From Gammaproteobacteria bacterium (GTDB taxonomy: Bacteria; Pseudomonadota; Gammaproteobacteria; SURF-13): DNA of 64,000 nucleotides. The translations under genes were made by a program, and so were the position numbers. The stretch lies in assembly GCA_038924245.1 (NCBI GenBank), contig JBCKVB010000002.1, positions 531 to 64,530 of the forward strand, given 5' to 3'. This document shows positions 13,468 through 62,361 of the stretch, in pieces. The notes below the pieces were generated by a model. The model did no database searches, was not told where the DNA came from, and saw only the letters and a list, made by a program, of their open reading frames with translations. Position 1 is the first letter of the stretch. Every line of letters starts with the position of its first letter.

Positions 13468-13716
13468 GCGTCAGGTTATTGCAGGTCAGGCTGCCAGACA
13501 GTCAACCTGATGCTGATGAATGCCATCGCCCACCCTCTCCCCAACCCTCTCCCGCCCTGCGGGAGAGGGGGATGTTCCCTCTCCCCGTTTGCGGGGAGAG
13601 GGCCAGGGAGAGGGGTGAGTCATCGTAGATCAGGCTGCGAAGCTGCCTGACAATCTCTGTGTCACGGAGCGCTGCGCGCACCGTGACCTACGCGCTGAGT
13701 ACTCATAAGTCAGTAG
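13463..13716. repeat. Composite repeat cluster (REP hairpins plus CCCTCTCCC/GGGAGAGGG cloverleaf)
   Basis: GTGTAGGCGTCAGGTT...AACCTGATGC overlaps the parE stop. 13531-13619 holds nested CCCTCTCCCG-CCCT-GCGGGAGAGGG and CCCTCTCCCCG-TTT-GCGGGGAGAGGG hairpins. 13625-13693 is nearly identical to 18099-18167. Confidence 0.8.
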
Positions 13717-18098: not shown

Positions 18099-18167
18099 TG
18101 TAGGTCAGGCTGCGAAGCTGCCTGACAATCACTGTGTCACGGAACGCTACGCGCACCGTGACCTACG
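18099..18167. repeat. REP/BIME pair (GTAGGTCAGG and GTAGGTCACGG heads)
   Basis: TGTAGGTCAGGCTGCGAAGCTGCCTGACAATCACTGTGTCACGGAACGCTACGCGCACCGTGACCTACG. A near-identical copy lies at 13625-13693. Confidence 0.8.
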
Positions 18168-21304: not shown

Positions 21305-21810
21305 GACTTGCGCCGCACCGTGAGCACGAGCGGGTCGGGGCCGCTCAGTTTTACATATTCCTTGTTGCTCAATTCCATGTGTTGACCCACGACGCGCGCC
21401 TCGATGGGGAGTTCGCGCCCGCCGCGCTTCACCAGCACCGCCAGGGTCACGCTGGCCGGGCGTCCGTAGTCGAAGATTTCGTTCAGCGCGGCGCGGATGG
21501 TGCGCCCGGTGTAGAGCACGTCGTCCACCAGGATGATGTGCCGCTCCTCCACGCTGAACGGCAGGCGCGAGGGCTTGACCTCCGGATGCATGCCGATGCG
21601 CGTGAAGTCGTCGCGGTAAAACGAGATGTCCAGCACGCCCAGCGGTTCGGGCAGTTGCAACAGACGATGCAGTTTTTCCGCCACCCACACCCCGCCGGTG
21701 TGGATGCCGATCATGAGCGGGTCAGGCATGTCTTGCCGTTCGATCAGCGCGCGCAGCTCGCGCGCCAGGGTCTCGATCAGGTGCTGAACGTCCGGCGTGG
21801 CATTGCTCAT
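21301..21810 (-). CDS. pyrR: Bifunctional pyr operon regulator / uracil phosphoribosyltransferase PyrR
   Basis: 169 aa. PRTase motif [12 protein letters not shown]. Confidence 0.9.
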
Positions 21811-22274
21811 CGGGCGCGCGTCTCATCCAGCCAGGTCTGCAAGATGACCTGCGCGGCGATATGGTCAATGGCGGGTTGACGACCGGCGGTCGCTCCCGGC
21901 CTCCTGCCTCCCGCGACACTAAGCCGTCCTTGGCTGGCGCGCCGGTTGTCGTTTTGTGACGCGCGCTGTGCGGCGTGCGAAGAGAGCCGCTCGTCCACGG
22001 TGTACACCGGCAGGCCGTAGCGCTGACCGAGTTGCAGGCTGAAACGCCGCGCCGCGCGCGCGACCGGGTGTTCTCCGCCCTCGCCCAGCGGCACGCCCAC
22101 CACCAGCGCGCTCGGATGCCATTCCTGGATCAGGCGCGTGATCGCCTCCCAGTCCGGCTTGTTGCCGCGCGTGGGCAGGGTGACGAGCGGCGTGGCGCTG
22201 TGGGTGAGCTTCTGCCCCACCGCCACGCCGATGCGCCGGGTTCCGTAATCAAAACCGAGCAGGGTGGAGGTCAT
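21807..22274 (-). CDS. ruvX: Holliday junction resolvase-like RuvX (YqgF), carrying an 18-codon element insertion
   Basis: LGFDYGTRRIGVAVG N-terminus and DERLSS motif. The C-terminal region is interrupted by [18 protein letters not shown], encoded by element E1. Confidence 0.88.
   Translation of the reverse strand: MTSTLLGFDYGTRRIGVAVGQKLTHSATPLVTLPTRGNKPDWEAITRLIQEWHPSALVVGVPLGEGGEHPVARAARRFSLQLGQRYGLPVYTVDERLSSHAAQRASQNDNRRASQGRLSVAGGRRPGATAGRQPAIDHIAAQVILQTWLDETRAR
21888..21941 (+). repeat. Intragenic palindromic element E1 (54 nt, subfamily III) inside ruvX
   Basis: GGTCGCTCCCGGCCTCCTGCCTCCCGCGACACTAAGCCGTCCTTGGCTGGCGCG. In-frame in ruvX, whose mRNA carries the G-rich strand. Confidence 0.9.
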
Positions 22275-23866: not shown

Positions 23867-24003
23867 AGGCTGGTGTGCAACCTCTTTAACATGGCGTGGC
23901 TAATGATACCGCTCAGCACGCCAAAGATCACGGCCGCCGTCATGAACACCGGCAATAAATAGAACAGGCCGGGATGCGGGATGAACCAGGCATAGGCGAG
24001 CCA

Positions 24004-24068
24004 GAAGTAGCAAGAGCACTGATCTTTGTGTTTTTTCTTGCCACTTGCTACTTGCTACTTGACACTTG
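24004..24068. repeat. GCAAGT-heptad palindromic element, copy i (overlaps the gshB stop)
   Basis: GAAGTAGCAAGAGCACTGATCTTTGTGTTTTTTCTTGCCACTTGCTACTTGCTACTTGACACTTG. The arms AAGTAGCAAG / CTTGCTACTT are inverted repeats. Confidence 0.8.
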
Positions 24069-24999
24069 TTTCTCAACCGCATCGAGAAACGCCGCTGAAA
24101 TGTTTAACCCATACAATGCATCCAGTTCACGCGCGCACGTAGGGCTGGTGACGTTGATCTCGGTCAGGTAATCGCCAATCACGTCCAGGCCCACGAACAG
24201 CAAACCTTTCTCGCGCAGGGTGGGGCCAACCTGTTCGCAAATCCAGCGGTCGCGCGCCGAGAGCGGCACGCCCACGCCGTGCCCGCCCGCGGCGAGGTTG
24301 GCGCGCGTCTCGCCCGGTGCCGGCAGGCGCGCCAATGCATAGGGTACCGGCTCGCCGTTGATGAGCAGAATGCGTTTGTCGCCCGCGCTGATCTCCGGTA
24401 GGTAACGCTGCGCCATGACGAAATGCCGCGCGTACCCGGTCATGGTTTCGATAATCACGCCGATGTTGGGGATCATCCGCGCGCACGCGGAACACCGAGC
24501 TGCCGCCCATGGCGCCGAGCGGCTTTAAAATGATGTCGCCCTGCTCGTGCAAAAAATCGCGCAGTTGTCGCGGATTGCGCGTCACCAGGGTGGGCGGCGT
24601 GCACTGCGGGAACCAGGCGGTGAACAACTTTTCATTGCAGTCGCGCAGCGCGCGCGGTTTATTCACCACCAGCACGCCTTCCGCCTCGGCGCGTTCCAGC
24701 AGGTACGTGGTGTACACGTACTCCATGTCAAACGGCGGGTCTTTGCGCATCAGAATCACATCCAGCGCGGCGAGCGGCTCCGTGGTCTCCGCGCCGAAAT
24801 CAAACCAGTGCGCGGGGTCGTCCCGCACGCGTAAGCCGCGCATGCGCGCGAAGCCGCGCCCGTCGCGCAGAAACAGGTCGCCCTGTTCCATGTAGGAAAT
24901 TTTCCAGCCGCGCGCCTCCGCCGCGAGCAGCATGGCGAAGGTGGTGTCTTTTTCGATGTGTATCGTGGTGATGGGGTCCATCACCACGCCTATATGCAA
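24048..24999 (-). pseudogene. gshB: Glutathione synthetase, interrupted by a +1 frameshift in a C4 run (or sequencing error)
   Basis: The N-part (track ORF 24127..25044) matches GshB through ...[13 protein letters not shown]. The C-part (24048..24476) continues [10 protein letters not shown]...EINVTSPTC in another frame. The junction is GATGATCCCCAACATC (plus-strand GGGG at 24468-24471). The start is uncertain (TTG 24999 or ATG 24981). Confidence 0.85.
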
Positions 25000-25074
25000 G
25001 TTGCAAGTAGCAAGAGTGCTAACTGTTATGTTTTTCTTTGCCACTTGCTACTTGCTACTTACTACTTGACACTG
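24996..25074. repeat. GCAAGT-heptad palindromic element, copy ii (overlaps the gshA stop and gshB start)
   Basis: GCAAGTTGCAAGTAGCAAGAGTGCTAACTGTTATGTTTTTCTTTGCCACTTGCTACTTGCTACTTACTACTTGACACTG. Same orientation as copy i. Confidence 0.8.
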
Positions 25075-26531: not shown

Positions 26532-26693
26532 CTAGTGTAGTGTTGCATTCTTGATGGAACTTTCGAGCAACACCTTGTAGGTCGGACTTCAGCCCGACAT
26601 GTCGCCCTGAAGGGCGACCTACAGGACGAGCCACACGTCGGCATAAGTTCCACATAGCGTGCAACACTACACTAGCACGTCCCTGTGCGTCGC
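26532..26693. repeat. MITE-like unit: 16-bp perfect terminal inverted repeats around a REP hairpin, followed by an isolated hairpin-2 module (E9)
   Basis: CTAGTGTAGTGTTGCA (26532-26547) and TGCAACACTACACTAG (26660-26675). Inner hairpin TGTAGGTCGGACTTCAGCCCGACA/TGTCGCCCTGAAGGGCGACCTACA (26576-26623). Then GCACGTCCCTGTGCGTCGC (26675-26693). Confidence 0.75.
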
Positions 26694-27216: not shown

Positions 27217-28542
27217 TTAGCTGTCCCGCGGCAGCGCGCGCGCACCGATGTCGCGCCGGTAAAACACGCCATTCCAGCGCAGGGACTGCGCCAATTGATA
27301 GGCATTGGATTGCGCGGCGCGGTAACTCTCTCCCAGCGCGCAGGCGCACAGCACGCGCCCGCCCGCGGTGACGATATCTTTTCCCTGTTGCGCGGTACCG
27401 GCGTGAAATATCTTGGTCGCTCCCGGCATCCTGCCTCCCGCGACACTAGCACATCCCTGTGCGTCGCCGCTTGCTTTATCCAGACCATGAATCACGTCAC
27501 CCTTGCGGTAAGCGCCGGGATAGCCTTGCGCGGCGAGCACGATGCCTAAGGCAATGCGTTCATCCCACTCCGCGTGTACCTGATCGAGCCGTTTACTCAG
27601 CGCCGCCTCGGTCAGCATCACCAGATCGGAACGCAGACGCAGCAGGATGGGTTGCGCTTCCGGATCGCCCAGGCGGCAATTGAACTCCAGCACCTTGGGC
27701 GCGCCATCGGGAGCAATCATGAGACCGGCATAGAGAAAGCCGGTGTAGGGTTTGCCCTCCGCCGCCATGCCGCGCAGCGTGGGTTCGATCACCTCGCGCA
27801 GCACGCGCGCGTGTACCGCGGGCGTCACCACCGGCGCGGGCGAATACGCGCCCATGCCGCCGGTGTTCGGCCCCTGGTCGCCGTCGTCGCGGCGTTTGTG
27901 ATCCTGCGCGGTGGCGAGCGCCAGCGCGTGTTCGCCGTCCGCCAGCACGATGAAGCTCGCCTCTTCGCCGGTCAGGAATTCTTCAATCACCACGCGGCTG
28001 CCCGCCTCGCCGAGCAGCGCGCCGCTCAGCATTTCGCTTACCGCGGCGAGCGCCGTTGGCTTGTCCTCTGCGATCACCACGCCCTTGCCCGCCGCGAGGC
28101 CATCGGCCTTGATGACCAGCGGTACGCCTGTTTTGTGGATGTACGCGACGGCTTGATCGAGATCGCTGAACACCGCGTAAGCGGCGGTGGGGATGTGGTG
28201 GCGCGCCATGAAATCCTTGGCGTAGGACTTGGAGGCTTCAAGCTGCGCGGCTTCCCGCGTTGGCCCGAAGCAGCGCAAACCCGCCGCTTGAAACTGATCC
28301 ACGATACCCAGCGACAGCGGCGCCTCCGGCCCGATGATGGTGAGATCAATCTTATTGCCGCGCGCGAAGTTGACCAGCGACCCGATATCATCGGCGTCTA
28401 TGGCGATGTTTTCTGTTTTCGGCTCCTGCGCCGTGCCGGGATTGCCCGGCGCCACGAACACTCTGGTCACCCTGGGTGATTGCGCCACCTTCCACGCCAA
28501 GGCGTGCTCGCGCCCGCCGGAGCCGATGATTAAAACGCGCAT
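27217..28542 (-). CDS. purD: Phosphoribosylamine--glycine ligase, carrying an 18-codon element insertion
   Basis: 441 aa. MRVLIIGSGGREHALAWK N-terminus and ATP-grasp core. Insert [18 protein letters not shown] sits just before ...KIFHAGTA. Confidence 0.93.
   Translation of the reverse strand: MRVLIIGSGGREHALAWKVAQSPRVTRVFVAPGNPGTAQEPKTENIAIDADDIGSLVNFARGNKIDLTIIGPEAPLSLGIVDQFQAAGLRCFGPTREAAQLEASKSYAKDFMARHHIPTAAYAVFSDLDQAVAYIHKTGVPLVIKADGLAAGKGVVIAEDKPTALAAVSEMLSGALLGEAGSRVVIEEFLTGEEASFIVLADGEHALALATAQDHKRRDDGDQGPNTGGMGAYSPAPVVTPAVHARVLREVIEPTLRGMAAEGKPYTGFLYAGLMIAPDGAPKVLEFNCRLGDPEAQPILLRLRSDLVMLTEAALSKRLDQVHAEWDERIALGIVLAAQGYPGAYRKGDVIHGLDKASGDAQGCASVAGGRMPGATKIFHAGTAQQGKDIVTAGGRVLCACALGESYRAAQSNAYQLAQSLRWNGVFYRRDIGARALPRDS
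27415..27468 (+). repeat. Intragenic palindromic element E2 (54 nt, subfamily I) inside purD
   Basis: GGTCGCTCCCGGCATCCTGCCTCCCGCGACACTAGCACATCCCTGTGCGTCGCC. Confidence 0.9.
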
Positions 28543-28545
28543 GAC

Positions 28546-30180
28546 TTAGTGCCGGAAATGGCGCATGCCGGTGAACACCATGGCGATGCCGTGCTCATTC
28601 GCCGCCGCGATCACTTCCGCGTCGCGCACCGAGCCGCCGGGCTGGATGATGGCGCTGATGCCCGCTTGCGCGGCGGTGTCCACGCCGTCGCGGAACGGGA
28701 AGAAGGCGTCGCTCGCCACCACCGCGTGCTTCAGTATGAGCCCGGCCTCCTCGGCCTTCAGCACCGCGATGCGCGCGCTGTACACGCGGCTCATCTGTCC
28801 GGCGCCGATACCGAGAGTCCGCGCATCCCTGCCGTACACGATGGCGTTGGATTTCACGAATTTGGCCACCTTCCACACAAACAGCAGGTCTTGCAGTTGT
28901 TGCGGCGTGGGTTGTCTTTCCGTCACGATCTTGAGTTGCGCGGCGCTGATGGACGCCGCATCGCACTCCTGCACCAGCAGCCCGCCCGTGACGCGCTTGT
29001 AGTCCATCCCGCCTTGCGCCGGTCGCTCCCGGCATCCTGCCTCCCGCGACACTAGCAGAACCCTTCGCTGGCGCTCTTCCCTGTGCGTCGCCGCCGGCCA
29101 CTCGCCGCAGGCCAGTACGCGCACGTTGGGTTTGCCGCTGAGCACAGCGCGCGCTTCATCCGTCACCTGTGGGGCGATGATGACCTCCACGAATTGACCC
29201 TGCACAATGCTTTGCGCCGTCTCGGCGTCGAGCGCCTGATTAAAGGCGATGATGCCGCCGAACGCCGAGGTGGGGTCGGTGGCGTGGGCGCGCCGATAGG
29301 CTTCTGAAATATTTTTCCCCAGCGCCGCCCCGCATGGATTGGCGTGCTTCACGATCACGCAGGCCGGTACCGCGCCGAAGGATTTGACGCACTCCAGCGC
29401 GGCGTCGGCGTCCACGATGTTGTTAAAGGACAGGGGTTTGCCTTGCAGTTGCGTGGCGCTTGCCACGCAGCCGCTCGGCGGACTCGGTTCGCTGTAAAAG
29501 GCGGCCTGCTGGTGCGGGTTTTCGCCGTAGCGTAGCGCTTGCAGCTTGTGGAATGAAGCAACGAAGCGCTCAGGAAACAAGTCACGCGTATTCGCATCAT
29601 GAGTGTGGCGGCCCAGATATTCGGCAATCGCCGCGTCATATTGCGCGCTATGCGCAAAGGCCTTTTGCGCCAGCATGAAGCGCGTGTCCTGGCTCACCGC
29701 GCCTTGATGGGCGCGCATCTCGGCCAACACGCGCGCATAGTCCGCGCTCTCCACCAGTACCGTGACGGCGGCATGATTTTTCGCCGCCGCGCGCAGCAGG
29801 GCCGGGCCGCCGATGTCTATGTTTTCAATCGCCGTGGCGAGATCACAGCCGGGCGTGGCGATGGTTTGGGCGAAGGGATAGAGGTTCACCGCCAGAAGAT
29901 CAATCGGCGGGATGCCGTGTTCGGCCATCACCGCGTCGTCCGTGCCGCGCCGCCCCAGCAGGCCGCCGTGGATTTTGGGGTGCAGGGTTTTCACGCGCCC
30001 CGCCATCAGCTCCGGAAAGCCGGTGTAATCGGAGACCTCGGTCACCGCGATGCCGTGTTGTGCAAGCAGTCTGGCGGTGCCGCCGGTGGAGAGTATCTGT
30101 ACGCCCAGCTCCACCAGACCGCGCGCGAACTCGACGATTCCGGATTTGTCTGAAACGCTAAGGAGGGCGCGGGTAATCAT
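28546..30180 (-). CDS. purH: Bifunctional AICAR formyltransferase / IMP cyclohydrolase, carrying a 24-codon element insertion
   Basis: 544 aa. [11 protein letters not shown]-terminus and C-terminal ...TGMRHFRH. Insert [24 protein letters not shown] lies between ACGEWPA and [16 protein letters not shown]. Confidence 0.93.
29021..29092 (+). repeat. Intragenic palindromic element E3 (72-nt long form) inside purH
   Basis: GGTCGCTCCCGGCATCCTGCCTCCCGCGACACTAGCAGAACCCTTCGCTGGCGCTCTTCCCTGTGCGTCGCC. Confidence 0.9.
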
Positions 30181-30526: not shown

Positions 30527-31593
30527 GCCGCGAGTTCCTCCGACGCACAGGGAAGAGCGACAGCGAAGGGTCCTGCTAGTGTCGCGGGAGGCAGGATGCC
30601 GGGAGCGACGCCGCCGCCGCGTTCGGCATGCTGCAGACCGTCGAAAAATTGCCGGGTGATGGCCAATTGTTGCGCGCTGCTGGCGGCCGCGTTGATGGTT
30701 TGGCGAAACTGCGCGCTGCCGTTCTGCCCCTTGCTGTACCAGGACAGATGTTTGCGCGCCATCAGCACGCCGGTGTGCTCGCCGTAAAAGGCGTACAGGT
30801 TGCGCATGTGGCCCATCAGAATGGCGCGGATTTCGGCCACGCCCGGCTCCGGCATGATCCGGCCCGTTTCCAGATAATGCTGGATGGCGCGGAACAGCCA
30901 CGGGCGGCCTTGCGCCGCGCGCCCGATCATGATCCCGTCGGCGCGCGTGTAGTCGAGCACGAATTGCGCCTGTTCGGGTGTGCTGATGTCGCCGCCCGCG
31001 ATCACCGGGATGCGTACTTCTGATTTGATCGCGGCGATGGTGTCGTATTCGGCCTCGCCGCCGAAGGCGCAGGCGCGCGTGCGCCCGTGCACCGCCAGCG
31101 CCTGGATGCCGCATTGCTCCGCGATGCGCGCCACGGCGACGCCGTTGCGGTGCTGTCTGTCCCAGCCGGTGCGGATTTTTAATGTCACCGGCGCCGGCGC
31201 CGCGCGCACCACAGCTTCGAGAATACGCGCGACCAGTGATTCGTCCTGCAACAGCGCCGAGCCCGCCATCACGTTGCACACCTTCTTCGCCGGACAGCCC
31301 ATGTTGATGTCTATGATCTGCGCGCCGTTGTCCACGTTGTATTTGGCCGCTTCGGCCATGAGCCTGGGATCGGCCCCGGCGATCTGGATGATACGCGGCT
31401 CGGTCTCGCCCTCGTGGTTGGCGCGGCGCCGGGTTTTCGCGCTGCCCCACAGGAGTGAATTGGAAGACACCATCTCCGACACCGCCATGCCCGCGCCGAG
31501 CTGTTTGCACAACTGGCGGAACGGACGGTCGGTGACGCCCGCCATGGGCGCCAGAATCAGATTGTTGCTTAATTTATACGGGCCGATTTGCAT
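30523..31593 (-). CDS. dusB: tRNA-dihydrouridine synthase B, with an element insertion in the C-terminal tail
   Basis: 356 aa. LAPMAGVTDRPFR N-terminus. The tail ...[35 protein letters not shown] is encoded by element E4. Confidence 0.9.
   Translation of the reverse strand: MQIGPYKLSNNLILAPMAGVTDRPFRQLCKQLGAGMAVSEMVSSNSLLWGSAKTRRRANHEGETEPRIIQIAGADPRLMAEAAKYNVDNGAQIIDINMGCPAKKVCNVMAGSALLQDESLVARILEAVVRAAPAPVTLKIRTGWDRQHRNGVAVARIAEQCGIQALAVHGRTRACAFGGEAEYDTIAAIKSEVRIPVIAGGDISTPEQAQFVLDYTRADGIMIGRAAQGRPWLFRAIQHYLETGRIMPEPGVAEIRAILMGHMRNLYAFYGEHTGVLMARKHLSWYSKGQNGSAQFRQTINAAASSAQQLAITRQFFDGLQHAERGGGVAPGILPPATLAGPFAVALPCASEELAA
30540..30610 (-). repeat. Intragenic palindromic element E4 (long form) at the 3' end of dusB
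   Basis: The minus strand reads GTCGCTCCCGGCATCCTGCCTCCCGCGACACTAGCAGGACCCTTCGCTGTCGCTCTTCCCTGTGCGTCG. Boundaries are good to about 2 nt. Confidence 0.85.
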
Positions 31594-32562: not shown

Positions 32563-32705
32563 CTCTGAATAAGTCCATCCTGGACTTCTCAGAGCACGAA
32601 AAGCAAAAACGTGGCCATAAGAATTATTATGGTGCTTTTCTTCATTTTTCAAACACTTCCGTGTTTGAAAAATGGCGGCACATCCCTGTGCCGCAGGAAC
32701 CTCTA
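32563..32705 (+). repeat. Modular multi-hairpin element, copy A (C-rich loops on the plus strand)
   Basis: H1 32563-32594 CTCTGAATAAGTCC-ATCCT-GGACTTCTCAGAG. H2 GAAAAGCA...TGCTTTTC. H3 TTTTTCAAACAC-TTCC-GTGTTTGAAAAA. H4 32676-32693 CGGCAC-ATCCCT-GTGCCG. Confidence 0.85.
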
Positions 32706-34246: not shown

Positions 34247-34440
34247 CTCTGAAAAACCCGTCCCTGGGATTTTTCAGAGACGGCCGCTCCTGCGCGTCCC
34301 TGCGCCCGCGGCATTGGGGCGTCCTGCCCGGCAAAAATAAAAAAACGTGGTTTTTTATTTTCTTCATTTTTCAAACACTTGACGTGTTTGAAAAATGGCG
34401 GTGCCTCCATGCACCGCACGGAACCTCTGACACATCAGAG
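34247..34440 (+). repeat. Modular multi-hairpin element, copy B (expanded)
   Basis: CTCTGAAAAACCC-GTCCCT-GGGATTTTTCAGAG; GCGC-GTCCCT-GCGC; GGGC-GTCCT-GCCC; an A/T hairpin; TTTTTCAAACAC-TTGAC-GTGTTTGAAAAA; CGGTGC-CTCCAT-GCACCG; CTCTGA-CACA-TCAGAG. Confidence 0.85.
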
Positions 34441-42149: not shown

Positions 42150-44209
42150 TATGGTTGAGGCGTCACGTCCGGCATACGCACACGTAAAGGCACTATCTCC
42201 CGCCCCATGCGGCTGCTGAAGATAGTGGTGTAGGCCATCACCTGCTGCACATAATTGCGTGTTTCAGTAAAGGGTATATTCTCCACCCAGATGTCGGAGG
42301 GCAGGTCTTGCTCTTCCGGACGCCACTGCCGGGCGCGTTGCGGCCCGGCGTTATAGGATGCCGTGGCGAGCGCCTGATGTTGTTCATTTTTGTCCAGCAC
42401 GTGGCGTAGATAGGCGGCGCCGAATTCGATATTTTTATCCACGTCGAATAACTCCTTCACGTGCCTGATCGGGTCGCCCAGCAGACGTGCAACGGCTTTT
42501 CCAGTGGCGGGCATGAGCTGCATCAAGCCGATCGCACCCGCGCTCGAGCGTGCATCGCTCACGAATGCGCTCTCCTGGCGTATCACGCCATACACCCAGG
42601 CCGGGTCGAGATCCTGTTGTTGTGCATTGGCCAGCACTTGTTCGCGGTACAGCAGGGGAAAGCGCAACTCAAGATCGTCCGTCACCTTGGCCTTGATCAG
42701 CGTGAGGATGGCGCGATCATGCCAGCCCCAGCGCGCGGCGAGCGACGCGGCCATGTGCAAGTGGCGTTGGTCCAGGGTGCGCGGCAAGTGATCCCACTCG
42801 CGCCGTGCTTCGCTTATCAGGCCAAGCTGATAAAGCTCATAGGCTTGCGCCACGCCCAAATACCGGCTCAACACCGCCAATTCTTCTTCGCTCGCCGCCA
42901 CGGATGAGTGGTTCATCTGATACGGCTGATTAAGCCGGTCGGCGGCGAGAAAACCGTAATAGCTGCGCTCGCGCGCGAGCTCCGAAAAAATCCGCTCAGC
43001 CTTGGATAGTCGCTCATGGCGTCCTGCCTCCCGCGACACTGGCACGTCCCTGTGCGGCGCAGGATGAGCCTGTGCGGAGGAGGGCTTGCTCTGGACGGGG
43101 GCGGTTTGCGCCAGCGCGCGCGCCTTCCAGTAGCGCCACGAGGGTTTATCACGCAGGGCCGCCGGCATGTCCGCAATGGCGCTCAGTACCGCGGGCCAGT
43201 CTTGTTGCAGCAACGCCGCGCGTACGCGCCATTCATGCGCGTTGTCGTCCAGCACCGTGCCGGGTACGGCGGCGAACAAGGTTGCCGCGAGAGGATCATG
43301 CTGCATGGCGGCGGCGAGCGCGATGTCGCGTTCGGTTTCGCCTGTCTCCTGCGCGCTGAAGGCGTAGCGGGGCTTGATGCTCCACCACTTATTATGAGCG
43401 AGACCGGCGTTGCCGCGCGCCATGCGTTTGATCGCGTAGCGCAGGATTTCACGCGCGCGCTGATGATCTTTTTTAAAGTCGGGATGATCGAGCAATGCGG
43501 CGGGGTCTTTATATGAACGCCGCCAGTGCTCCGCCCATTTACGATCCGCCGCGCCGAGGTCTTTGGAAAAATGCGCGGCCAAGCCCGGCTCGCGGTTGTC
43601 CATGGCGAGCCGGACACGCTGCCAGATCATGTCATTGGTCAGGCCGCCTTGAGCGCGCCAGCTTTTAAACACCGCGTCGCATTCCGCCGGTTGCGAGCGC
43701 CCCACCAGCCACAGTGTCTTGGCTTCATCGAGCCAGTCGGCGGCGGATGTTTGCCCGATCCCGGTTGCGAGACGCGCGCGTAACTGCAAACAATGCAGCG
43801 CCACGCCCTGCATGCCTGGATAGGGCTGGTAAACGCGCAGGAAATCTCCCCAGCGTTTCTGTTGCGCGAGATGCGTCAGCCAGGCGGCGCGCAAGCGGTT
43901 GCTCACCGAGGACTGGACGTAATCCTGAATAAATTGCTCTATTTCCCGTTCCGGCGTCTCGGCGAGATGATCCCTGATCTCGTCATAGCGCAGATAGCTT
44001 TGCAGCGGGTAACCTTCCAGGCGATTGAGCAGGCGCTGAAAAGTTTTTTGGTCGTCCACCTGGTATGCCTTGCGTGCGGCGAGAAAGTCATCGCGCTGCC
44101 GCTCGGTTTTCGCCTGTTTGCCCGGGTCGTCGGCTGGCGCGGTGGAGGGAAACAGCAGGGTGAGGGCGCCCAGCAGGACTCCCGCCAGACAGTGGTGCAT
44201 CCATTTCAT
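42149..44209 (-). CDS. slt: Soluble lytic murein transglycosylase (Slt70-like), carrying an element insertion
   Basis: 686 aa. Signal peptide, superhelical repeats, and a C-terminal SLT domain (VIRQESAF...GLMQL...YNAG). Insert APHRDVPVSREAGRHERL lies in the repeat region. Confidence 0.88.
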   Translation of the reverse strand: MKWMHHCLAGVLLGALTLLFPSTAPADDPGKQAKTERQRDDFLAARKAYQVDDQKTFQRLLNRLEGYPLQSYLRYDEIRDHLAETPEREIEQFIQDYVQSSVSNRLRAAWLTHLAQQKRWGDFLRVYQPYPGMQGVALHCLQLRARLATGIGQTSAADWLDEAKTLWLVGRSQPAECDAVFKSWRAQGGLTNDMIWQRVRLAMDNREPGLAAHFSKDLGAADRKWAEHWRRSYKDPAALLDHPDFKKDHQRAREILRYAIKRMARGNAGLAHNKWWSIKPRYAFSAQETGETERDIALAAAMQHDPLAATLFAAVPGTVLDDNAHEWRVRAALLQQDWPAVLSAIADMPAALRDKPSWRYWKARALAQTAPVQSKPSSAQAHPAPHRDVPVSREAGRHERLSKAERIFSELARERSYYGFLAADRLNQPYQMNHSSVAASEEELAVLSRYLGVAQAYELYQLGLISEARREWDHLPRTLDQRHLHMAASLAARWGWHDRAILTLIKAKVTDDLELRFPLLYREQVLANAQQQDLDPAWVYGVIRQESAFVSDARSSAGAIGLMQLMPATGKAVARLLGDPIRHVKELFDVDKNIEFGAAYLRHVLDKNEQHQALATASYNAGPQRARQWRPEEQDLPSDIWVENIPFTETRNYVQQVMAYTTIFSSRMGREIVPLRVRMPDVTPQP
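43008..43060 (+). repeat. Intragenic palindromic element E5 (subfamily II variant) inside slt
   Basis: AGTCGCTCATGGCGTCCTGCCTCCCGCGACACTGGCACGTCCCTGTGCGGCGC. It has CTGG instead of CTAG. Confidence 0.85.
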
Positions 44210-47790: not shown

Positions 47791-48582
47791 TCACGCGTGC
47801 GCCGCACAGGGAGGTGCCAGTGTCGCGGGAGGCAGGACGCCGGGAGCGACCAGTCGCTCTGCAATAGCTTCGCCGTCCCCGATGGGCGGTTCGTCACCGT
47901 CTTTTAAAGTGTATCCCAAGCATACGCCAATCTGCTCGGCGAGTTTATCTCCAATCTCGGAAAGCTTCGCCGTGATTCCCAGGCTGCGCATATCGGTTAC
48001 GTGCAGGTCGGCATGACCACACGGGTGGATACGTGTAAACGGCTCCAAGTCCATCGCCACATTGAGGCTCACGCCGTGATAGCTACAGCCTTGCCGAACG
48101 CGCAGCCCCAGGGCCGCAATCTTCGCGCCGTTGACATAAACGCCTGGCGCCTCACGGCGAGCCTCACCCGGTACGCTGTAGTCCGCAAGCAGCTCGATCA
48201 CGGACTGTTCCAATGCGTTCACCAACTGGCGCACGCCGAGGCCGCGCCGCCGCAAGTCGAGCAGCACGTAGCACACGAGCTGGCCGGGGCCATGATAAGT
48301 CACTTGTCCGCCGCGGTCGGCGTGAATCACGGGAATGTCTCGCGGCGGTCGCTCCCGGCGTCCTGCCTCCCGCGACACTAGCACGTCCCTGTGCGGCGCA
48401 GGCACGTGTTCACGCTTTGCGTTGAGACCAAGGGTATATACCGGCGGATGTTCTACCAGCCAGATTTCATCGGGTGTGGAGTTTGTGCGCGCCGCGCTGA
48501 ACTCGCGCATCGCCTCCCACACCGGCAGGTAGTCACGCAAGCCGAGTTCACGCACGATGATATCGGTGTGTGCGTTAGACAT
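47791..48582 (-). CDS. lipB: Octanoyltransferase LipB, carrying two element insertions
   Basis: 263 aa (about 50 aa longer than usual). WLVEHPPVYTLG and ADRGGQVTYHGPGQ motifs. One internal insert (E7) and one C-terminal insert (E6). Confidence 0.88.
   Translation of the reverse strand: MSNAHTDIIVRELGLRDYLPVWEAMREFSAARTNSTPDEIWLVEHPPVYTLGLNAKREHVPAPHRDVLVSREAGRRERPPRDIPVIHADRGGQVTYHGPGQLVCYVLLDLRRRGLGVRQLVNALEQSVIELLADYSVPGEARREAPGVYVNGAKIAALGLRVRQGCSYHGVSLNVAMDLEPFTRIHPCGHADLHVTDMRSLGITAKLSEIGDKLAEQIGVCLGYTLKDGDEPPIGDGEAIAERLVAPGVLPPATLAPPCAAHA
47799..47851 (-). repeat. Intragenic palindromic element E6 (subfamily II) in the last ~20 codons of lipB
   Basis: The minus strand reads GGTCGCTCCCGGCGTCCTGCCTCCCGCGACACTGGCACCTCCCTGTGCGGCGC, translated [17 protein letters not shown]. 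Confidence 0.88.
48347..48399 (+). repeat. Intragenic palindromic element E7 (subfamily II) inside lipB
   Basis: GGTCGCTCCCGGCGTCCTGCCTCCCGCGACACTAGCACGTCCCTGTGCGGCGC. 51 of 53 bases are identical to E6, in inverted orientation. Confidence 0.9.
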
Positions 48583-51511: not shown

Positions 51512-51575
51512 GTGGGCAGACGATAACCCTGTCTGTCCACCCTACCCACTTGCCACTTGCTACTTGCCTCTTGTG
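51512..51575. repeat. REP hairpin plus GCAAGT-heptad element (copy iii)
   Basis: GTGGGCAGACGATAACCCTGTCTGTCCACCCTAC followed by CCACTTGCCACTTGCTACTTGCCTCTTGTG. Confidence 0.7.
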
Positions 51576-60855: not shown

Positions 60856-62361
60856 ATGCCGATGGAATGGGAAACCGTCATTGGCCTTGAAGTTCACGCG
60901 CAGCTGGCCACGCGCAGCAAAATCTTTTCCGGCGCGCCTACCGCCTATGGCGCGCTACCCAACACCCAGGCCTGCGCCATTGATCTGGGGATGCCCGGCG
61001 TGCTGCCGGTGTTGAACGAAGAGGCGGTGCGCATGGCGGTGAAGTTCGGCCTCGCCGTCGGCGCCAAGGTCGCGCCGCGCTCGGTGTTCGCGCGCAAGAA
61101 TTATTTTTATCCAGATCTGCCAAAAGGCTATCAGATCAGCCAGTACGAATTGCCGGTGGTGGCGCAAGGCAAGATCGAGATCGAGCTGGAGGACGGCGGC
61201 GCCAAGACTATCGGCATCACGCGCGCGCACCTGGAAGAGGACGCGGGTAAATCACTGCACGAAGATGCCATTGGGAAGACGGGCGGCATGAGCGCCATTG
61301 ATCTCAATCGCGCCGGCACGCCGTTATTGGAGATCGTCTCCGAGCCCGACATGCGCTCGGCCAAGGAGGCGGTGGCCTACATGAAAAAAATCCACTCGCT
61401 GGTGCGTTATCTGGAAATCTGCGACGGCAACATGCAGGAAGGCTCGTTCCGCTGCGACGCCAACGTCTCGGTGCGGCCCAAGGGCCAGCATGAATTCGGC
61501 ACGCGCGCCGAGTTGAAAAACATCAACTCATTCCGCTTTGTCGAGAAGGCCATCAACTATGAAGTGCGGCGCCAGATCGAACTGCTGGAAGGCGGCGGCA
61601 GCGTGGCGCAGGAGACGCGTTTATATGATGCCGACAAGGACGAGACGCGGCCCATGCGCAGCAAGGAAGAAGCCAACGACTACCGCTATTTCCCCGACCC
61701 GGATTTGCTGCCGCTGGAAATTGACGCGGGGTTTATTGAAACCGTGCGCAAGACCCTGCCGGAATTGCCGGACCAGAAAAAACAGCGCTTCATCAAAGAC
61801 TACGCACTGACGCCCTATGAAGCGGGCGTGTTGACCTCCAGCCGCGAACTCGCGGCTTATTATGAAGACGCGGTGCGCGGCGGTCGCTCCCGGCGTCCTG
61901 CCTCCCGCGACACTAAGCCGTCCTTGGCTGGCGCGGGGGGCGGGGAGCCCAAGCTGTGCGCCAACTGGGTGCTGGGCGAGCTGCTGGGCGCGCTCAACAA
62001 AAATAACCTGGACATCAACGCCAGCCCGGTCAGCCCCGCGCAGCTTGCCGGTATGCTCAAGCGCATCGGCGACAACACCATCTCCGGCAAGATCGCCAAA
62101 CAGGTGTTCGATGCCATGTGGCACGGCGAGGGCGATGCGGACGCGGTGATCGCCGCCAAGGGCTTGAAACAAGTCACCGACAGCGGCGCGATTGAAAAGG
62201 TGATTGATGAGGTGATTAAAAAATTCCCAGAACAGCTCGCGCAATACCGCAGCGGTCAGGAAAAATTATTCACCTTCTTCGTCGGCCAGGTGATGAAGGC
62301 GAGCCAGGGCAAGGCCAACCCGGCGCAGGTCAATGAACTGCTGAAGGAAAAGCTCAAGTAG
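60856..62361 (+). CDS. gatB: Amidotransferase subunit B, carrying an 18-codon element insertion
   Basis: 501 aa. [14 protein letters not shown]-terminus. Insert [18 protein letters not shown] lies between ...YYEDAVRG and [16 protein letters not shown]. The start is 6 nt after the higA stop. Confidence 0.93.
61882..61935 (+). repeat. Intragenic palindromic element E8 (54 nt, subfamily III) inside gatB
   Basis: GGTCGCTCCCGGCGTCCTGCCTCCCGCGACACTAAGCCGTCCTTGGCTGGCGCG. gatB mRNA carries the C-rich strand. Confidence 0.9.

Follow-up and report, generated by a model that had tools for sequence, protein, structure and literature searches.

The locus and the dispersed repeat

The window analysed here, a 64,000-nt stretch of a gammaproteobacterial genome assembly, carries within its ruvX gene a 51-nt sequence with two different predicted hairpins, which recurs in and around other housekeeping genes. 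The copy in ruvX, referred to as E1, lies on the plus strand at 21889-21939 and reads GTCGC-TCCC-GGC-C-TCC-T-GCC-TCCC-GCGAC-ACTA-AGCC-GTCCTT-GGCT-GGCG; hairpin 1 occupies 21889-21917 and an extended hairpin 2 occupies 21919-21939. The hairpin-1 pattern was found at eight sites of the window (21889+, 27416+, 29022+, 30581-, 43009+, 47822-, 48348+ and 61883+), as against 0.02 expected by chance from shuffled sequences. The two-hairpin repeat that a first-pass annotation had placed at 21888-21941 is thus confirmed, with its limits moved to 21889-21939. A repeat finder groups the same eight window copies. The host genes are ruvX, purD, purH, dusB, slt, lipB (twice) and gatB, and the copies are arranged as follows.

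E1, 21889..21939, plus strand: 51 nt, hairpin-2 stem AGCC/GGCT; in frame and antisense in ruvX (22274..21807, minus strand); site empty in related genomes G001 and G003
E2, 27416..27466, plus strand: 51 nt, hairpin-2 stem GCAC/GTGC; in frame and antisense in purD; site empty in G001 and G003
Solo hairpin 2, 26669..26692, plus strand: with 5' ACACTAG and 3' GTCG, without hairpin 1
E3, 29022..29090, plus strand: 69 nt; in frame and antisense in purH; site empty in G001, G003, G004 and G013
E4, 30541..30609, minus strand: 69 nt; in the sense of dusB, at whose 3' end it lies; missing from G001 and G004
E5, 43009..43059, plus strand: 51 nt; in frame and antisense in slt (soluble lytic transglycosylase); the cleanest empty site, in G001, G002 and G003
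E6, 47800..47850, minus strand: 51 nt; in the sense of lipB, at whose very 3' end it lies, 6 nt short of the stop codon
E7, 48348..48398, plus strand: 51 nt; in frame and antisense in lipB (5' part); site empty in G002 and G004
E8, 61883..61933, plus strand: 51 nt; in frame and in the same sense in gatB, in the linker between two domains; site empty in G001, G003, G004 and G013

Across the assembly (1.38 Mb in 78 contigs, 60% G+C, 83% completeness) there are 45 copies at no more than two mismatches and 48 at no more than five. The solo hairpin 2 at 26669..26692 has no counterpart elsewhere in the assembly and probably represents a copy truncated at its 5' end; with this single exception, the unit moves as a whole.

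The boundaries of the unit were profiled on 157 distinct short-form copies from the genome itself and from 114 loci of other genomes. A steep gain in information content at position 1 and a loss beyond position 51 fix its length at exactly 51 nt. The 5' end is GTCGC and the 3' end G(T/G)CG; the following base, which had been annotated as a final C of the unit, belongs to the flank and is C in only 51% of copies. Longer forms measure 69 nt (E3 and E4) and, elsewhere in the same genome, 87 nt, and the 18 extra nucleotides of E3 and E4 do sit within hairpin 2, as first noticed, and there in its loop. The annotated layout of hairpin 1 holds for its outer stem, its TCCC internal loops and its apical TCC, but not for a 4-bp inner stem, as position 13 may be any base (A 69, G 60, T 19 and C 9 in the 157 copies); the inner stem consists of 3 bp and an optional fourth pair. 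Hairpin 2 forms an extended irregular stem that reaches from position 31 to position 51. The predicted minimum-free-energy folds contain exactly these two hairpins on both strands, whether the unit is treated as DNA or as RNA, and the folding z-scores are modest, at -2.3 for the C-rich strand and -0.6 to -1.0 for the G-rich strand.

Covariation of the stems and constancy of the loops

Pair counts were taken from an alignment of 128 distinct copies. In the window, the stem of hairpin 2 is GCAC/GTGC in E2, E5, E6 and E7 and AGCC/GGCT in E1 and E8 (the latter two being 98% identical), so that both arms differ between copies while pairing is kept, as the annotation had proposed. In the full alignment, the pair 35-46 occurs as UA (66 copies), CG (44), GC (7) and AU (3), the pair 36-45 as AU (84), GC (22), CG (12) and UA (2), the pair 34-47 as GC (116) and AU (7), and the outermost pair 31-51, C-G or T-A in the DNA, as CG (101) and UA (24). 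Mutual information reaches 1.0 bit for 35-46, 0.85 for 36-45 and 0.56 for 31-51, with a null maximum of 0.16, and it also flags 33-48/49 and 34-47. None of 500 shuffles attained the observed values for hairpin 2, and the signal collapsed when the 3' partners were slid out of register. The outer pair 31-51 had been missed in the annotation.

Hairpin 1 is almost invariant in this local sample. The outside loci (L001-L114) had been fetched by exact match to positions 8-29, so this near-invariance is partly a selection artefact, and because of this bias a covariance model was built and weaker hits in other genomes were examined. These divergent relatives carry compensatory variants of the outer stem (GCCGC/GCGGC, ATCGC/GCGAT, GTCGT/ACGAC, GCCTT/AAGGC and GCTGC/GCAGC) as well as of the inner stem (GAC/GTC, TGAC/GTCA, GCGC/GCGC, GGCC/GGCC, CACA/TGTG and GCACA/TGTGC). 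While the stems vary, TCC is kept in four loops, namely both internal loops of hairpin 1 (TCC[C/T] on the 5' side), its apical loop (NTCCN) and the loop of hairpin 2 (NTCCNT); a 5' ACTAG and a 3' GTCG are likewise fixed throughout the family. From the compensatory changes in stems whose TCC loops are kept, it follows that both hairpins represent real, selected structures, and selection for nucleic-acid structure is real.

The covariation expected by the first-pass annotation is therefore borne out by the aligned copies, strongly for hairpin 2 and in divergent relatives for the stems of hairpin 1. Two of its structural details fared differently. Its three subfamilies apply to the window only; genome-wide and in other genomes there are at least ten stem variants. 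An alternative pairing of the terminal G(T/G)CGC with the central GCGAC is not supported: at four of the five pairs 20-26% of cells are unpaired, the helix shows a single double change in 128 sequences, confined to one pair, and position 51 covaries with position 31 instead.

Insertion sites, targets and arrays

Empty sites were sought by joining the flanks of the eight window copies and searching five related genomes. Such sites exist in sister species for E1, E2, E3, E5, E7 and E8, with flanks 72-91% identical, and none of seven window copies tested is present at the same site in the two to four sister species compared for each. The element has therefore been inserted recently. At E5, GGATA|element|CAGG corresponds to GGATA|CAGG in G001, G002 and G003, an exact insertion of 51 nt. 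Alignments of filled and empty sites for the six copies show that all insertions are exact (51 or 69 nt) and occurred without target duplication and without inverted termini. Positions are not conserved between sister species: the dusB gene of G003 holds an independent copy near the E4 site in the opposite orientation, and G013 holds a nested pair of copies 20 nt from the E7 site.

In 81% of copies the element is preceded by G (background 30%), and in 65% by YG (background 17%). Among left-flank tetranucleotides, GTCG, GGCG and GCCG are enriched 6- to 19-fold (GTCG 19-fold, GGCG 6.6-fold) and CTTG 9-fold. The target preference is strong yet degenerate, with GNCG favoured, and many GTCG flanks belong to further copies. 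Head-to-tail arrays at a spacing of exactly 51 nt are frequent, with the GTCG at the end of another copy as target, and so are nested pairs in which insertion took place just after the GTCG of a reverse copy's stem; from these arrays and nested insertions it follows that the element itself provides many of the GTCG targets. The possibility that the target is read by the same guide as the right end was rejected, since the left-flank base covaries with neither position 31 nor position 51. In the closed genome G182, with 61 copies, and within contigs of G007, copies on the two strands are intermingled, and no clear replication-related orientation bias was seen there or in a GC-skew test of the element's own genome (20 versus 9, p = 0.06).

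Copies inside genes and the encoded peptide

A log-odds model of codon usage, with the genome's long ORFs as its training set, served to assess the coding context of the copies. Of the 48 copies of this genome, 26 are embedded in uninterrupted ORFs whose coding signal extends to either side of the copy, 18 are at gene edges and 4 between genes; 60 of 112 copies from other genomes are also confidently inside coding frames. Only stop-free phases are used, and the single copy found in a phase containing TAG has TGG instead. The inserts fall in loops, linkers and tails of unrelated host proteins, and the residues encoded by E2 form an extra loop relative to the solved PurD structure 3mjf. Both the unit and the 18-nt modules have lengths divisible by three, and stops are confined to two of the six frames; therefore many in-frame insertions persist in a compact genome.

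Orientation within genes is biased, 60 of 86 confidently intragenic copies (26 here and 60 elsewhere) being antisense to the gene (p = 3e-4). The expectation for each frame combines the dinucleotide preference seen at the targets with the composition by codon position in genes of this genome, and the frames are distributed as follows.

Antisense phase 2 (Gly/Ala/Ser/Arg-rich peptide): observed 51, expected 25
Antisense phase 1: observed 9, expected 15
Sense phase 0: observed 14, expected 21
Sense phase 1: observed 11, expected 23.5
Sense phase 2: observed 1

The bias across the four open frames is pronounced (chi-square p = 4e-8). The excess is confined to one frame and the other antisense frame is depleted; the bias therefore points to how well the encoded loop is tolerated rather than to the strand present in the mRNA. 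Of the copies at gene 5' ends, four are sense and four antisense. The frame counts indicate a peptide-level filter acting alongside structure. The earlier proposal that structure and not the peptide is selected accordingly needs qualifying: the stems do covary, but a single reading frame accounts for 51 of the 86 intragenic copies.

Distribution

The hairpin-1 pattern (no more than two mismatches) occurs in 18 of 20 genomes of the same family, with up to 108 copies, and in 2 of 21 genomes of other families in the same search. Its 22-nt core was found in more than 114 stretches when one genome per species was scanned, the carriers including Acidiferrobacterales, Thiohalophilus, Sedimenticola, Rhodanobacter and Gilvimarinus. 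The covariance model matched 59 of 301 evenly sampled genomes of the class, or 55 of 271 genera (about 20%). Cultured carriers exist, such as Sedimenticola hydrogenitrophicus SN1189 with about 47 model hits and Gilvimarinus xylanilyticus with 5.

Single near-consensus copies occur in Nitrosomonas eutropha Nm57 and Halomonas casei, in ORFs that we take to encode type I restriction-modification methylases (hsdM), at different positions, and another in Photobacterium, in a gene that is presumably prophage-like to judge by its translation. Given such host genes, these isolated copies have probably spread together with horizontally transferred genes. The plasmid and phage collections gave no match to a 56-nt query. 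Rfam, searched over the whole window at the gathering threshold, gave no match, and in E-value mode over E6 and E7 only one at chance level (E = 1.1). Searches of the literature by sequence strings retrieved no published description of the element, and keywords retrieved only general papers on REPs, RPEs and MITEs.

Candidate enzymes

A search of the assembly for Y1 transposase genes, in line with the type of enzyme that the first-pass annotation had suggested, revealed three Y1_Tnp genes. They encode long proteins, one with a Bac_DnaA_C-like tail, and belong to the TIRYT type, also described as TnpA_REP subclass 2.1 (PMC3733652, PMC6006769). These genes and 17 of 20 homologues retrieved from genomes with the element (no ORF was obtained at the other three loci) have AAAGGGGTCA(A/G)G and TGACCCC repeats at their flanks, mostly at both; the repeats correspond to the published GGGGWSAS motif. 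The same assembly contains separate repeat families of the TIRYT inverted-repeat type and a GTAG-headed doublet. The covariance model, run with filters off on 50 kb around the 20 TIRYT genes, found no copy of the 51-nt element at E <= 1. With no copies around these genes, which have repeats of their own, there is thus no physical link between the element and the transposase. A hairpin-1-like sequence lies 40 nt downstream of a Y1 gene on another contig of this genome (C14, outside the window), a single case.

Statistically, however, the two are linked. TIRYT-like genes (E <= 1e-10) are present in 48 of 59 element-positive genomes versus 91 of 241 element-negative ones, an odds ratio of 7.2 (p = 1.5e-9) that ignores kinship, and within the family the number of Y1 genes tracks the number of copies (rho 0.61, p = 0.03, kinship likewise ignored). 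Eleven of the 59 element-positive genomes have no TIRYT-like gene, and G001 holds 19 copies with no Y1 match at 98% completeness. Other enzymes were considered in the same genomes, again with kinship ignored. IS110 was rejected, as its occurrence is not associated with that of the element (odds ratio 1.5, p = 0.21), and so was IS91, whose association is weak (odds ratio 2.5) and whose Y2 genes are absent from the assembly itself and from G004 and G009, genomes carrying 13-45 copies. The mobilising enzyme is probably of the HUH class, and by co-occurrence the TIRYT/RAYT-like Y1 proteins are the best candidates.

Interpretation and alternatives

We favour, with some reserve, the reading that the feature in ruvX is one copy of a non-autonomous mobile DNA element of 51 nt with two different hairpins, moved as single-stranded DNA by an HUH-type tyrosine nuclease acting in trans. 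Such a nuclease would excise or copy the element and integrate it as single-stranded DNA; it would recognise the hairpins with their loops, and each end would be cut 3' of ...CG. Copies losing the fold would stop propagating, which would produce the covariation, and survival within genes would then be filtered by the encoded peptide, the Gly/Ala/Ser/Arg-rich frame predominating. The TIRYT/RAYT-like Y1 proteins that co-occur with the element family would be the best candidates for this task. The suggestion of the first-pass annotation that the repeat is a substrate of single-strand HUH/Y1 enzymes is consistent with the precise insertion 3' of a short motif, the lack of target duplication and of terminal inverted repeats, the 51-nt arrays and the guide-like pair 31-51, but no Y1 gene is flanked by the element.

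This last point, together with the lack of a clear replication-strand bias and the 19 copies in the Y1-free G001, would fit mobile DNA that is moved by an agent other than a Y1 enzyme, that is, by an IS91-type rolling-circle (Y2) transposase, by a hairpin-targeting DEDD recombinase of the IS110 type or by template switching of the host replication or repair machinery at hairpins. IS91 inserts beside a tetranucleotide without duplication, and the enrichment of CTTG at the left flank would suit it. We nevertheless consider such an agent unlikely: Y2 genes are missing from three genomes that carry the element, IS110 does not follow the distribution of the element, and template switching does not account for single copies that are scattered over unrelated sites and yet have a defined boundary at 51 nt. 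A conventional MITE derived from an insertion sequence with a DDE transposase would share the small size, high copy number and patchy distribution, but its ends should be inverted repeats, whereas those of the element are not (5' GTCGCTCC, 3' GTGCGTCG), and the empty sites show no target duplication; this origin is extremely improbable.

The constancy of the TCC loops, which read GGA on the other strand, amid covarying stems might also be seen as the mark of an RNA module, with the G-rich strand as the transcript, kept for binding of CsrA/RsmA or for another action in mRNAs, with mobility as a secondary trait. The apical hairpin GGC-AGGAU-GCC resembles the CsrA consensus hairpin, and the 60 antisense copies among the 86 intragenic ones place the G-rich strand in the mRNA. 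We regard this as decidedly improbable, because the excess in orientation concerns one frame only (the other antisense frame has 9 copies versus 15 expected) and so reflects the peptide and not the RNA strand, copies at gene 5' ends are evenly divided, positions are not kept between sister species, no Rfam family matches, and the G-rich strand folds no better than shuffled sequences (z = -0.6 to -1.0). The RNA-level function offered by the first-pass annotation thus finds no support in the orientation or position of copies. The twofold excess of one frame would also suit a repeat kept for its peptide, a selected 17-residue protein module that spreads by recombination between genes. That reading is very improbable, given that the copies use four frames in both orientations and also lie at gene edges and between genes, that covariation keeps base pairs and not residues, and that the host proteins are unrelated and receive the inserts in loops, linkers and tails. 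The single-stranded DNA element moved in trans accordingly remains the reading we prefer.

Comparison with known systems

Among described repeats, the Rickettsia palindromic elements (RPEs; Ogata et al. 2000, summarised in PMC10969869 and PMC3733652) are close in their way of life. According to these summaries, they are palindromic dispersed repeats that lie in frame in housekeeping genes and add short peptides, and, like the 51-nt element, they have no assigned transposase. Judged by the published descriptions, the 51-nt element differs in its size, its two unlike hairpins, its four conserved TCC loops and its occurrence in Gammaproteobacteria, and its insertion anatomy, 3' of YG and without duplication, is defined here. 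RPE-4 and RPE-6 were placed among CGTC-headed single hairpins by Di Nocera et al. (PMC3733652), a class to which the 51-nt element does not belong.

The REP/REPIN-RAYT systems, including intragenic GTAG and CGTC REPs (Di Nocera et al. 2013, PMC3733652), share with the element short structured repeats, subfamilies with compensatory stem changes, some intragenic copies and a presumed link to Y1 HUH enzymes. A REP is a single imperfect palindrome of 20-40 nt with a GTAG (or CGTC) tag at one end (PMC3733652), whereas the 51-nt element has neither head and two hairpins in place of one 5-13-bp stem-loop; its copies are mostly single or head-to-tail, not inverted doublets, and about half of them (26 of 48 and 60 of 112) are intragenic, while REPs are predominantly extragenic. 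Unlike in REPtrons, copies never flank a RAYT gene, neither in the 50 kb around 20 Y1 genes nor at the inspected flanks of the assembly's own Y1 genes. TIRtrons with their TIRYT genes (TnpA_REP subclass 2.1; PMC3733652, PMC6006769) resemble the Y1 genes of this assembly in combining Y1_Tnp with a Bac_DnaA_C-like tail and in their GGGGTCA inverted repeats. The 51-nt element, however, is not a TIRYT terminal repeat and is not adjacent to TIRYT genes, the repeat families of which are separate.

PATEs, non-autonomous derivatives of IS200/IS605, likewise lack terminal inverted repeats and target duplication and have a hairpin at each end. They insert 3' of a specific tetra- or pentanucleotide, the 51-nt element 3' of a preferred but degenerate sequence. 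Moreover, in both, bases on the 5' side of the right hairpin covary with those at the 3' terminus, in the fashion of a guide and a cleavage site. The 51-nt element departs from PATEs in that no parent insertion sequence with the same ends and a tnpA gene was found, and its hairpins are dissimilar and, apart from the solo hairpin 2, always adjacent. A bias in orientation relative to the replication fork, expected of PATEs, was not clearly seen. The ends of IS608 carry similar hairpins, unlike the two of the 51-nt element. In the latter, moreover, the first base already belongs to the left hairpin, which leaves no space for a guide on that side. The terminal inverted repeats and target duplications of DDE-type MITEs are lacking. 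In common with CsrA/RsmA-binding RNAs of the CsrB, RsmY and RsmZ type, the element has several GGA loops, on the G-rich strand only (predicted loops GGGA, AGGAY, GGGA and AGGGAN), a resemblance and nothing more; it matches no curated family and has no consistent sense of transcription, as both orientations occur. The 51-nt element combines an RPE-like lifestyle with a REP/PATE-like anatomy, while lacking defining features of each of these groups.

Biological significance

TIRYT proteins are, to our knowledge, the largest RAYT-like group, and we know of no REP-like partner on record for them. A bolder view, speculative and in our opinion quite unlikely, is that the element family forms a cross-order population of minimal single-strand-DNA transposons whose code consists of four TCC loops, two covarying hairpins and a guide-like 3' pair, which would be serviced in trans by TIRYT-class Y1 enzymes and would also, where the transcript has the G-rich sequence, deliver CsrA-type hairpins into mRNAs. 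If TIRYT enzymes did service the element, they would therefore drive in-frame peptide insertions in essential genes across Gammaproteobacteria.

On the preferred reading of a mobile DNA element moved in trans, the 51 nt would represent a minimal mobile unit that carries all signals for movement. With a length divisible by three and stops in only two of its six frames, such a unit may remodel essential proteins without breaking them. The family offers an unusually clean data set for separating layers of selection, that is, DNA fold, choice of target and encoded peptide, and, with cultured carriers at hand, it provides a testable lead on the role of TIRYT-type tyrosine transposases.

Add-on module and other repeats

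The longer forms of the 51-nt element are accounted for by an 18-nt add-on module (GAACCCTTCGCTGGCGCT-like), which is placed within the hairpin-2 loop of the 69-nt forms and is present twice in the 87-nt forms. A module related to it is located inside hairpin 1, in its 3' half, in two element copies. The add-on always stands ahead of CCCTG, and its length is a multiple of three in every case. The own-genome sites of these modules are C11:22156 and C25:4223, C3:31185, and C5:30737 (contig:position). The module may be a second-order insert.

The window also contains other repeats:

13625-13692 and 18100-18167, 68-nt repeat, 94% identity between both copies
32660-32695 and 34383-34418, inverted repeat and hairpin
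23992-24068, 24992-25068 and 51546-51574, ACTTGCT-like heptamers in arrays (CCACTTGCTACTTGCTACTTG)

The 68-nt repeat (GTAGRTCAGGC...GCCTGAC ... GTCACGG...CCGTGACCTAC), built from a pair of inverted hairpins with GTAG and CTAC at their heads and present in at least one further copy on contig C1, is a classical REPIN-like doublet. The second repeat consists of the inverted repeat TTTTTCAAACAC/GTGTTTGAAAAA followed by the hairpin GCGGCAC-ATCCCT-GTGCCGC, which has a loop of the hairpin-2 type. In other genomes, too, element copies have hairpins nearby whose loops read (N)TCC(N)T and whose stems are free. On contig C3 (59793) and in locus L107, element copies are bordered by 'caagtagcaagt' strings similar to the ACTTGCT-like heptamers.

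Transposase genes and single element copies

The own genome encodes three Y1 transposases of the TIRYT type, each gene with its own flanking inverted repeats:

C14:639-1640, TIRYT-type Y1 gene
C11, TIRYT-type Y1 gene
C53, TIRYT-type Y1 gene

The C14-type end (AAAGGGGTCAAGTTCATTGTATGAC) also occurs in gene-less copies on other contigs (C7, C10, C13). Downstream of the C14 gene, at a distance of 40 nt, is a sequence resembling hairpin 1, GTCGCGCGTGCAGGGATGCGCAGGAGCGAC.

In the G002 genome, the ruvX orthologue (L138/L133) carries a different insertion of around 120 nt, which includes a stretch of N and falls in the same part of ruvX as E1, the in-frame antisense copy at window 21889..21939 (+). 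Nitrosomonas eutropha Nm57 (L051) and Halomonas casei FME64 (L110) each contain one near-consensus element copy per genome. Both copies lie within ORFs which, from reading of the sequence, we take to encode type I restriction-modification methylases (hsdM); they share a common reading frame, with a peptide that includes DAQGSA(S/N), and are located close to the ORF C-terminus, at positions differing between the two.
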